A DNA stretch of 64,000 bases from the NCBI GenBank assembly GCA_017438745.1, contig JAFRUS010000093.1, positions 3,794 through 67,793 on the forward strand. Direction: 5' to 3'. Within the stretch, counting starts at the first letter, position 1. Each line of letters starts with the position of its first letter. The position numbers were made by a program, and so were the translations under genes. This stretch comes from Oscillospiraceae bacterium. GTDB lineage: Bacteria; Bacillota; Clostridia; Oscillospirales; Ruminococcaceae. Under the pieces are notes generated by a model. The model made no database searches. It had not been told where the DNA came from and worked only from the letters and a program-made list of their open reading frames with translations. Below are positions 10,102-10,212 of the stretch, piece after piece.

Positions 10102-10212
10102 GGAAAACGCTGATTTATTCATAAATCGGCGTGGGACACGGGGCGAAGCCACGTAATCTCCCCGTCCCGTCAATCCGGCGAAGCCCGATTGACGACGTAA
10201 TCAGTGTTTTCC
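10102..10212 (+). repeat. Modular GCGAAGC-hairpin repeat, copy B (forward, full length, 111 bp)
   Basis: ggaaaacgctgatttattcataaatcggcg / cacggggcgaagcc / aatccggcgaagcccgatt / taatcagtgttttcc. The terminal inverted repeats are GGAAAACGCTGATT and AATCAGTGTTTTCC. Confidence 0.9.

Follow-up and report, generated by a model that had tools for sequence, protein, structure and literature searches.

What kind of sequence is the short, hairpin-rich repeat that recurs between the genes of a 64,000-nucleotide stretch of Oscillospiraceae bacterium DNA (contig JAFRUS010000093.1 of assembly GCA_017438745.1, positions 3,794 to 67,793; hereafter the window)? An initial annotation, made from the letters of this DNA, had proposed a "MITE- or BOX-like" family. 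Our results showed that the repeat is very probably a non-coding MITE (miniature inverted-repeat transposable element) of about 109 bp, which belongs to the group of the insertion sequence (IS) IS5, lies between genes at YTAR-like target sites and carries three well-kept hairpins. This kind of element is known, but the family itself is apparently new, judged against Rfam and string searches of the full-text literature. At the gathering threshold, the Rfam search of the whole window returned two tRNAs only; the signature strings had no relevant match in the searchable full-text literature, and nothing relevant was found in the literature on GCGAAGC intergenic repeats. A 2024 survey of prokaryotic MITEs mentions Ruminococcus only in passing (PMC11602168).

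The similarity was not confined to the window. A two-hairpin pattern scan was run over 185,579 species-representative genomes, and the matches listed, which are a lower bound, included two rumen metagenome-assembled genomes (MAGs), uncultured Ruminococcus sp. RUG13497 and Oscillospiraceae bacterium ruminal_MAG_89 (MAG_89). With nhmmer, 148 copies were harvested from 699 kb, including at least 95 from RUG13497, 30 from MAG_89 and 9 from the window. These three related genomes thus hold more than 130 copies, and the modular structure was kept far outside the window. The 109-bp consensus is GGAAACGCTGATTTATTCATAAATCAGCGTGGGGTCCGGGGCGAAGCCCCGCAAATCCCACCTCCGGAAATCCGGCGAAGCCGGATTTCCGATTTAATCAGTGTTTCC. 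Its ends are 13-bp terminal inverted repeats (TIRs), GGAAACGCTGATT and AATCAGTGTTTCC, which are complementary at 12 of the 13 positions with one G/A difference, and TIRs were present in 92 of 137 harvested copies. The copy length of 74-112 bp leaves no room for protein coding. Alignments reproduced the anatomy described in the initial annotation: at the left there is an end with which hairpin 1 overlaps, then come a GGGGCGAAGCCCC hairpin and a ATCCGGCGAAGCCGGAT hairpin, and the inverted right end closes the element.

The sequences just outside the ends carried the signature of insertion. Exact 4-bp target-site duplications (TSDs) were found in 52 of 92 copies, whereas 2000 shuffles of the partners gave 13.6 on average and never more than 25. 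They were mainly TTAA (24), TTAG (11), CTAA (8) and TTAT (4), and a YTAR-like preference was represented by TTAA, TTAG and CTAA together (43/52). The outside 4-mers co-varied from side to side, as in TTAG...TTAG, CTAA...CTAA, TAAG...TAAG and CTGT...CTGT. Because non-palindromic pairs exist (TAAG, CAAA, CTGT, AAAG and ATAA), the alternative of a TA duplication next to a TIR that is one base longer was excluded. IS5 duplicates 4 bp at 5'-YTAR-3' (PMC5009759), and the E. coli IS5 copy examined here adjoins CTAA. A short non-coding unit, of tens to a few hundred bp, with TIRs, TSDs and many dispersed copies is what defines a MITE.

Larger elements with the same ends were found in a metagenome scan keyed on the preferred target, the left end and a base not used by the MITE copies, which returned 120 contigs. 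Several of these contained IS-sized segments with the same inverted ends and matching 4-bp duplications. On contig L106, positions 66-1266 form a 1201-bp element (TTAG, GGAAACGCTGATTAATTC..., TTAG) with an intact open reading frame (ORF) of 339 amino acids, which contains the domains DUF772 (PF05598) and DDE_Tnp_1 (PF01609) and is 51-53% identical to the transposases of IS5 and ISKpn26. An IS5-like ORF by the same end was also present in a frameshifted 1190-bp element on L118 (TTAG/TTAG) and in a 713-bp deletion derivative on L165, and IS5-like ORFs adjoined the same end on L110 and L133. The IS ends equal the MITE ends over 13 bp and agree with them for five bases beyond the search key (GGAAACGCTGATTAATTC versus GGAAACGCTGATTTATTC and GGAAACACTGATTAAATC), and the similarity extends to about 18 bp; some IS ends of these contigs also contain a palindrome like hairpin 1. 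Like the MITE, IS5 of E. coli and its group have ends beginning GGAA and a 4-bp duplication at YTAR-like sites, and the elements that share the MITE ends encode the DUF772 plus DDE_Tnp_1 (InsH-like) transposase. Unlike IS5, the MITE is non-coding and 109 bp long, and its three-hairpin interior differs from the IS interiors examined. The ends of E. coli IS5 (GGAAGGTGCGAACAAG) have only about 7 of 16 bases in common with those of the MITE (GGAAACGCTGATTTAT), so that the source or partner would be another sublineage of the IS5 group. The TIRs, the TSDs and the IS5-type elements with the same ends together indicate an IS5-group MITE and not a REP or BOX repeat.

Two other segments bracketed by IS5-type ends with matching 4-bp duplications were noticed. 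One, on L207 (972-2718, TTAA/TTAA), holds RNase M5-like and KsgA/RsmA-like genes, named by sequence motifs alone, and the other, on L112 (5335-6625, TTAG/TTAG), holds an enoyl-CoA-hydratase-like gene; both may be derivatives that carry cargo or are composite, or else the ends may have come to stand opposite each other by chance. One rumen contig carried an IS5-type motif. A metagenome scan for the left end plus hairpin 1 without module 2 after it gave 0 matches.

The other half of the earlier proposal was a BOX-like family. Such an element would be a palindromic repeat of the REP/BIME or BOX type, for whose spread a single-strand transposase of the RAYT type (IS200/IS605-like) or recombination would be responsible. 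REP/BIME of enterobacteria and pseudomonads and pneumococcal BOX are, like the MITE, modular palindromic intergenic repeats with compensated stems and a possible effect on mRNA. The modular, hairpin-rich build, the intergenic sites and the loss of a module in copy G of the window agree with such an origin, and a single-strand mechanism would be in keeping with the orientation bias of the copies and with their very stable hairpins of the d(GCGAAGC) type. However, the family has TIRs and 4-bp direct TSDs, neither of which is made by REP, BIME or IS200/IS605, the consensus contains no GTAG-type head such as is conserved in REPs, which are imperfect palindromes of 20-40 nt, and no Y1-transposase-like multi-copy ORF was present in the sampled DNA. 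REPs are tied to RAYT, whereas the ends of this family match IS5-group elements encoding DDE transposases, which are its partner candidates. Because those families lack the combination of TIR and TSD, the BOX/REP half was unsupported and is highly improbable, and the MITE half stood, on the TIRs, the co-varying TSD, the copies in three genomes and the IS5-type elements sharing the ends.

Closer in lifestyle are the Correia (NEMIS) elements of Neisseria and the pneumococcal RUP elements, which are intergenic MITEs of about 100-150 bp with TIRs, co-transcribed, with stable RNA hairpins, high copy number and internally deleted variants; the likeness is one of description. Their target duplication, however, is TA, and their TIRs are different and longer. 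In contrast to these IS630-like families, the present MITE duplicates 4 bp at YTAR, including non-palindromic 4-mers, and has IS5-type ends.

The nine copies that had been listed in the window were all there, and they are the complete nhmmer set, with no others at full length. Two profiles, one built from the nine window copies and the second from 81 full-length relatives, returned the same nine (E-values of 2e-28 to 2e-11 in one search and 5e-33 to 4e-16 in another), and the remaining weak matches in the window were palindromes that matched their own opposite strand. The end motif GGAAAACGCTGATT, with up to 2 mismatches, occurred 8 times in the window against 0.62 expected, and 0 of 100 shuffles reached 8. 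All nine copies are intergenic, at a density of about 1 copy per 7 kb of the window, and no placed copy was inside a predicted ORF. The copies lie in both orientations and in all intergenic geometries, as had been described for the orientations, and the module loss of copy G and the different but paired stems of copy F were as the initial annotation had described them. The limits given for the focal copy B (10102-10212) were each one base too wide; its flanks are CTAG and CCAG, and the end assigned to the family was that of copy B, whose extra A is absent from the other copies and from the consensus GGAAACGCTGATT. The features of the window copies are as follows.

10103..10211 (+): copy B (focal), full-length MITE by sequence and nhmmer (E = 4e-27)
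10099..10102 (+): copy B left flank CTAG, which with CCAG is a decayed 4-bp TSD (3/4 bases)
10103..10115 (+): copy B left TIR, GAAAACGCTGATT (family consensus GGAAACGCTGATT)
10108..10131 (+): copy B hairpin 1, CGCTGATTTAT-TC-ATAAATCGGCG, its 5' arm overlapping the left TIR
10139..10153 (+): copy B hairpin 2 core, CGGGGC-GAA-GCCACG, with an outer GGG/CCC stem around it (about 10133-10168)
10168..10194 (+): copy B hairpin 3, CGTCAATCCGGC-GAA-GCCCGATTGACG, its outer stem copy-specific yet complementary
10199..10211 (+): copy B right TIR, AATCAGTGTTTTC
10212..10215 (+): copy B right flank CCAG, the decayed TSD partner
3513..3623 (-): copy A, a full-length copy carrying both TIRs and no recognisable TSD, within a minus-strand row of polyamine-biosynthesis genes and in the sense orientation
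18017..18116 (+): copy C, right end eroded, its start immediately downstream of the stop of gene 16952-18010
18386..18489 (+): copy D, at 87% identity to the consensus the best-preserved one in the window
44848..44946 (-): copy E, left end and part of hairpin 1 missing, in the divergent intergenic region between MoxR-type AAA and EamA genes
46889..47000 (+): copy F, the most diverged (64%), stems 1 and 3 different in sequence and still paired, in a convergent intergenic region
48108..48181 (-): copy G, internal-deletion derivative without module 2
59139..59232 (+): copy H, both ends eroded, orthologous in three species
60940..61032 (+): copy I, left end missing, between ABC-permease-like and histidine-kinase genes
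6839..6893 (strand not assigned): candidate member of 55 bp, its inverted ends TIR-like (GGAAACACTGA...ATCAGTTGTTTTG), kept at the orthologous site in locus L054
7837..7897 (strand not assigned): candidate member and possibly a relic, starting TTAA plus GGAAACACTGATT (a perfect end motif) without a second end (nhmmer E = 0.053)

The last two pieces had been called degenerate copies, and a "solo end" had been placed at 20399-20413. Of the family, all three carry end-like 13-mers only, and their membership cannot be shown; they are single-copy except for the L054 ortholog of the first.

Several observations weigh against an IS5-group MITE in this host, or limit the evidence for it. A phmmer search with the transposase of L106 detected no IS5-type transposase, either in the window or in the roughly 580 kb sampled from the two MAGs, and an all-against-all ORF comparison found no multi-copy ORF in the same host DNA. 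Since IS copies usually drop out of MAGs, the absence of a host transposase is weak evidence. In the MAG loci, TIR pairs at a spacing of 0.3-4 kb were all neighbouring MITEs, with no larger element among them, and orphan ends in the sampled host DNA were mini-derivatives or chance matches. The matching IS elements come from unrelated contigs and not from the host; for the autonomous partner with matching ends that the initial annotation proposed to look for, there are thus candidates on those contigs and none in the sampled host DNA. The protein relatives of L118 are proteobacterial; this low-GC element, tried as the rumen partner, was rejected on that ground and because it is missing from four rumen metagenomes in which the window genome occurs. 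The window copies mostly have no recognisable TSD, and only copy B keeps a trace of one (3/4). No clean pair of filled and empty sites was found between species, only deletion remnants or unalignable sequence, and no empty site was found at strain level in four DNA metagenomes, in which no contig skips exactly one element. The copies of RUG13497 have a median identity of 94% to the consensus and those of the window a median of 75% (range 64-87%), a comparison that is biased because RUG13497 copies dominate the consensus. Finally, there are metatranscriptome contigs that begin in flanking genes and extend into copies H and I; this RNA evidence consists of assembled contigs without strand information, in which DNA carry-over is possible.

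Within these limits, the copies differ in state between the genomes. In RUG13497, 36 of 81 copies are at least 95% identical to the consensus and TSDs are mostly kept, which suggests a recent amplification burst. The window copies, several of which have lost one or both ends, look old, and they look fixed since no metagenome contig skips exactly one element. Apparent "joints" in the metagenomes were rejected as empty sites, being cross-mapping between copies. In the same four DNA metagenomes, depth rises 3-9 fold at the copies and contigs end there. The three genomes are related, with syntenic proteins of the window and the two MAGs 84-99% identical, and assemblies from rumen and bovine gut, MAG GCA_017828865.1 among them, also encode the window proteins. 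A cellulosomal organism like Ruminococcus would fit the gene content of the window, in which there are a polyamine operon and genes for a dockerin/SH3 protein, a DUF5620 protein and dynamin-like GTPases, among others.

Individual sites allowed the history to be followed. Copy H is about 98% identical across all three species, and MAG_89 has a 40-bp deletion there that removes hairpin 3. Its CTGATT supplies the TGA stop (59141-59143) of the OmpR-type response-regulator gene 58454-59143 (…CTG TTA AGC TGA). The same junction is kept in RUG13497 and MAG_89; therefore, the insertion remodelled the C-terminus of the response regulator before the species split. Copy I is present in MAG_89 (L083) and absent at the RUG13497 site (L038), and at the copy B site RUG13497 has a 22-bp remnant only, like the 27-28-bp "nano" derivatives. 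Additional copies of RUG13497 adjoin the 55-bp piece (the 6839-6893 site) and lie in the spacer between a histidine-kinase gene and a tRNA pair, where the window has no copy. The sites that differ between species are B, I, the extra copy in L054 and the tRNA-side copy in L038. In the window, the two adjacent tRNA genes lie at 62160-62335 on the minus strand (Rfam 74.7 and 63.3 bits).

"Mini" and "nano" derivatives of 22-56 bp, with little beyond the two ends, are products of internal deletion of the palindromic core (L057 366-393, L070 1539-1565, L074 5372-5414, L089 3738-3793 and L054 about 4790-4811), and some have intact TTAA or TTAG TSDs. Two further scan matches, on the Actinomycetota MAG contig CAVUPN010000031.1, are a different two-hairpin motif without ends. 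Its near-identical copies (L030 6504-6561 and L067 349-405) read GGGGCGAAGCCCC ... ATCCGGCGAAGCCGGAT and then a T run, and match MITE modules 2 and 3 at E of about 1e-8; they have no terminal repeats and lie in a high-GC genome of another phylum. The motif may have arisen by convergence, as terminator-like hairpins, or be distantly related. Two viral-contig matches were discarded as unrelated GC-rich sequence.

The positions of the copies were also considered as those of a non-mobile regulatory motif, such as an operator, a terminator or a cis-regulatory RNA, which would have arisen by descent or convergence. Some copies lie just upstream of ribosome-binding sites or right after stop codons, and a permissive Rfam search with copies C and D gave sub-threshold matches only, the best being nqrA-II (27 bits against a gathering score of 55). 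No Rfam family was found at threshold, however, and the genes that flank the copies are functionally unrelated, covering polyamine synthesis, dynamin-like GTPases, a dockerin protein, MoxR, a glycosyltransferase and a two-component/ABC module. The occurrence in all intergenic geometries and both orientations also speaks against a regulatory motif, which is contradicted by the TSD result and by the presence/absence differences between species, and the TSDs, the mini-derivatives and the burst-like, near-identical copies of RUG13497 indicate transposition. We therefore give this explanation very little credence, and an IS5-group MITE remains the favoured one.

Hairpin conservation was scored on a MAFFT alignment of 114 copies against the three-hairpin structure. 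Standard pairs filled 95.7% of the cells, compared with 91.4% in shuffled data and 32-47% in slid controls. Doubly changed cells numbered 117, compared with 19.4 in shuffles (0 of 500 reached the observed value) and 22-44 in slid controls. In hairpin 1, 10 of 11 pairs showed compensatory changes, and in hairpin 3, 9 of 12 did. A perfect stem of 12-13 bp is present in hairpin 3 of most copies; even so, its outer part took 51 distinct sequences among 124 copies, of which more than 20 are fully compensated. No two of the nine window copies share an outer stem. Most of these stems are fully complementary, and copies B, E and F each have a mismatch near the loop. The GAA loop was kept in 111 of 114 copies in hairpin 2 and in 104 of 114 in hairpin 3. 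The sequence d(GCGAAGC) forms an exceptionally stable DNA mini-hairpin, and hairpins 2 and 3 of the MITE likewise have a GAA loop closed by a C-G pair within GCGAAGC; unlike the free mini-hairpin, the motif here caps stems of 6 and 12-13 bp inside a transposon. The consensus RNA fold reached -61.5 kcal/mol in the sense and -59 kcal/mol in the antisense direction (z about -7.8; sense z = -7.9), and copy B folded at -48.5 kcal/mol (z = -5.1).

A second kind of change was seen in the loops. On unchanged stems, exact loop inversion had occurred in hairpin 1 (TTCA to TGAA, 10 of 114 copies) and hairpin 3 (GAA to TTC, 3 of 114), and the inverted loops were spread over different stem-3 variants (for example L064:3088-3196, L073:7840-7948, L081 and L088). 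They are best explained as the footprint of intrastrand template switching or cruciform processing in palindromes; template switching is favoured because the exact inversions would need two or three simultaneous substitutions. Quasi-palindrome mutagenesis by intrastrand template switching is an established process. Since template switching would also copy changes from arm to arm, much of the hairpin covariation may be mutational rather than selected.

The hairpins may also have acquired a role in RNA. Copies H and I lie inside a cluster of response-regulator, ABC and histidine-kinase genes, and each of copies B and D separates a strong promoter-like site from its gene. For copy B, the promoter-like site is at 10043-10071 and the dynamin-like gene starts at 10262, so that the copy is probably in the 5' untranslated region (UTR) of that gene; copy D lies between a 12/12 promoter-like site at 18313-18341 and the start of the dockerin/SH3 gene at 18506. 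Between genes of the same direction, 48 of 67 copies were co-oriented with transcription (p = 5e-4). A replication-strand cause of this bias is not favoured because the trend was the same for genes on the lagging strand inferred from GC skew (12 of 18 copies co-oriented, small numbers). No sense hairpin in the window was called as an intrinsic terminator; terminator calls were made once for antisense hairpin 1 plus TTTCCTT and once for hairpin 3 plus a TTTT tail, in a consensus-like copy. The depth-spike ratios at the copies were greater in RNA than in DNA, contig word-depth being too crude to rely on. Together, the data on transcription, orientation and terminators allow an RNA-level role rather than establish one.

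As a layer added to the MITE origin, the element could have been domesticated, with host-selected hairpins acting in mRNA as a 3'-end protector, a leaky terminator or attenuator, or a UTR structure. Such a layer is unlikely, though clearly less so than either of the non-MITE explanations. It agrees with the transcription of the copies, with a sense bias that tracks transcription and not skew-inferred replication, with the strength of the sense fold and with the one copy in which hairpin 3 and its tail are called as a terminator. Old window copies also keep perfect stems while their TIRs decay, copy H is kept in three species, and G:T pairs outnumber A:C pairs (112 versus 45) among single-side stem changes on the sense strand. 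Against it, the G:T excess is mostly inherited from the family consensus, the antisense strand folds nearly as well, and the flanks of copy H are as conserved as copy H itself. The exact loop inversions point to a DNA-level process that yields "compensatory" changes without selection, the sense hairpins in the window were not scored as terminators, and the comparison of RNA and DNA depth is crude. It is a little more doubtful still that the old, end-less copies were retained since their sense hairpins shape the fate of mRNA in operons (as 3'-end protectors, leaky terminators or UTR structures). Equally tentative candidates for such cases are copy H in the response-regulator/ABC/histidine-kinase cluster and the 5'-UTR copies of the dynamin-like gene and the dockerin gene.

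For the IS5-group MITE, the following course can be proposed from sequence comparison. An IS5-group transposase would bind the MITE ends, cut YTAR with a 4-bp stagger and paste the element in, and only insertions between genes would survive. The copies would then erode at their ends, and the internal palindromes would stay paired, partly through intrastrand template switching in the DNA of these quasi-palindromes, with arm-to-arm copying and an occasional loop flip; selection on transcribed hairpins would possibly add to this upkeep. With the copies co-transcribed with their neighbours, the sense bias suggests either greater harm to host transcripts from the antisense orientation, or sense hairpins that are tolerated or useful as stable structures in 3' or 5' UTRs.

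Three further features of the window were noted. The dynamin-like GTPase genes downstream of copy B form a tandem (10262-14861, 774 and 766 amino acids) after a DUF7005 gene, an order kept on several rumen contigs. Two ORFs on the plus strand, of 1512 amino acids (28311-32849) and 788 amino acids (48217-50583), had no Pfam match at E <= 1e-5. At 8773-8810, near the end of a ParA/NUBPL-like gene, contigs in two metagenomes (X1 and X13) swap 36 bases for 172 others; this indel polymorphism is unrelated to the MITE.

The family adds a high-density IS5-group MITE in Firmicutes and provides a sequence marker for the lineage. The contig breaks at its copies explain why assemblies of abundant rumen Ruminococcus-like genomes shatter every few kilobases. 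Copies occur over a stop codon, within 5' UTRs and between the genes of operons, so that any prediction of promoters, terminators or gene ends in these MAGs should first mask or annotate them. The match of the ends to IS5-group elements of unrelated contigs, with proteobacterial relatives for L118, raises a question of host range and transfer. More than 100 copies with compensatory stem changes and loop inversions form a natural data set for comparing selection on hairpins with template-switch "palindrome correction". If the retention of old copies for their sense hairpins were true, it would represent large-scale MITE domestication in an uncultured rumen fibre-degrader.

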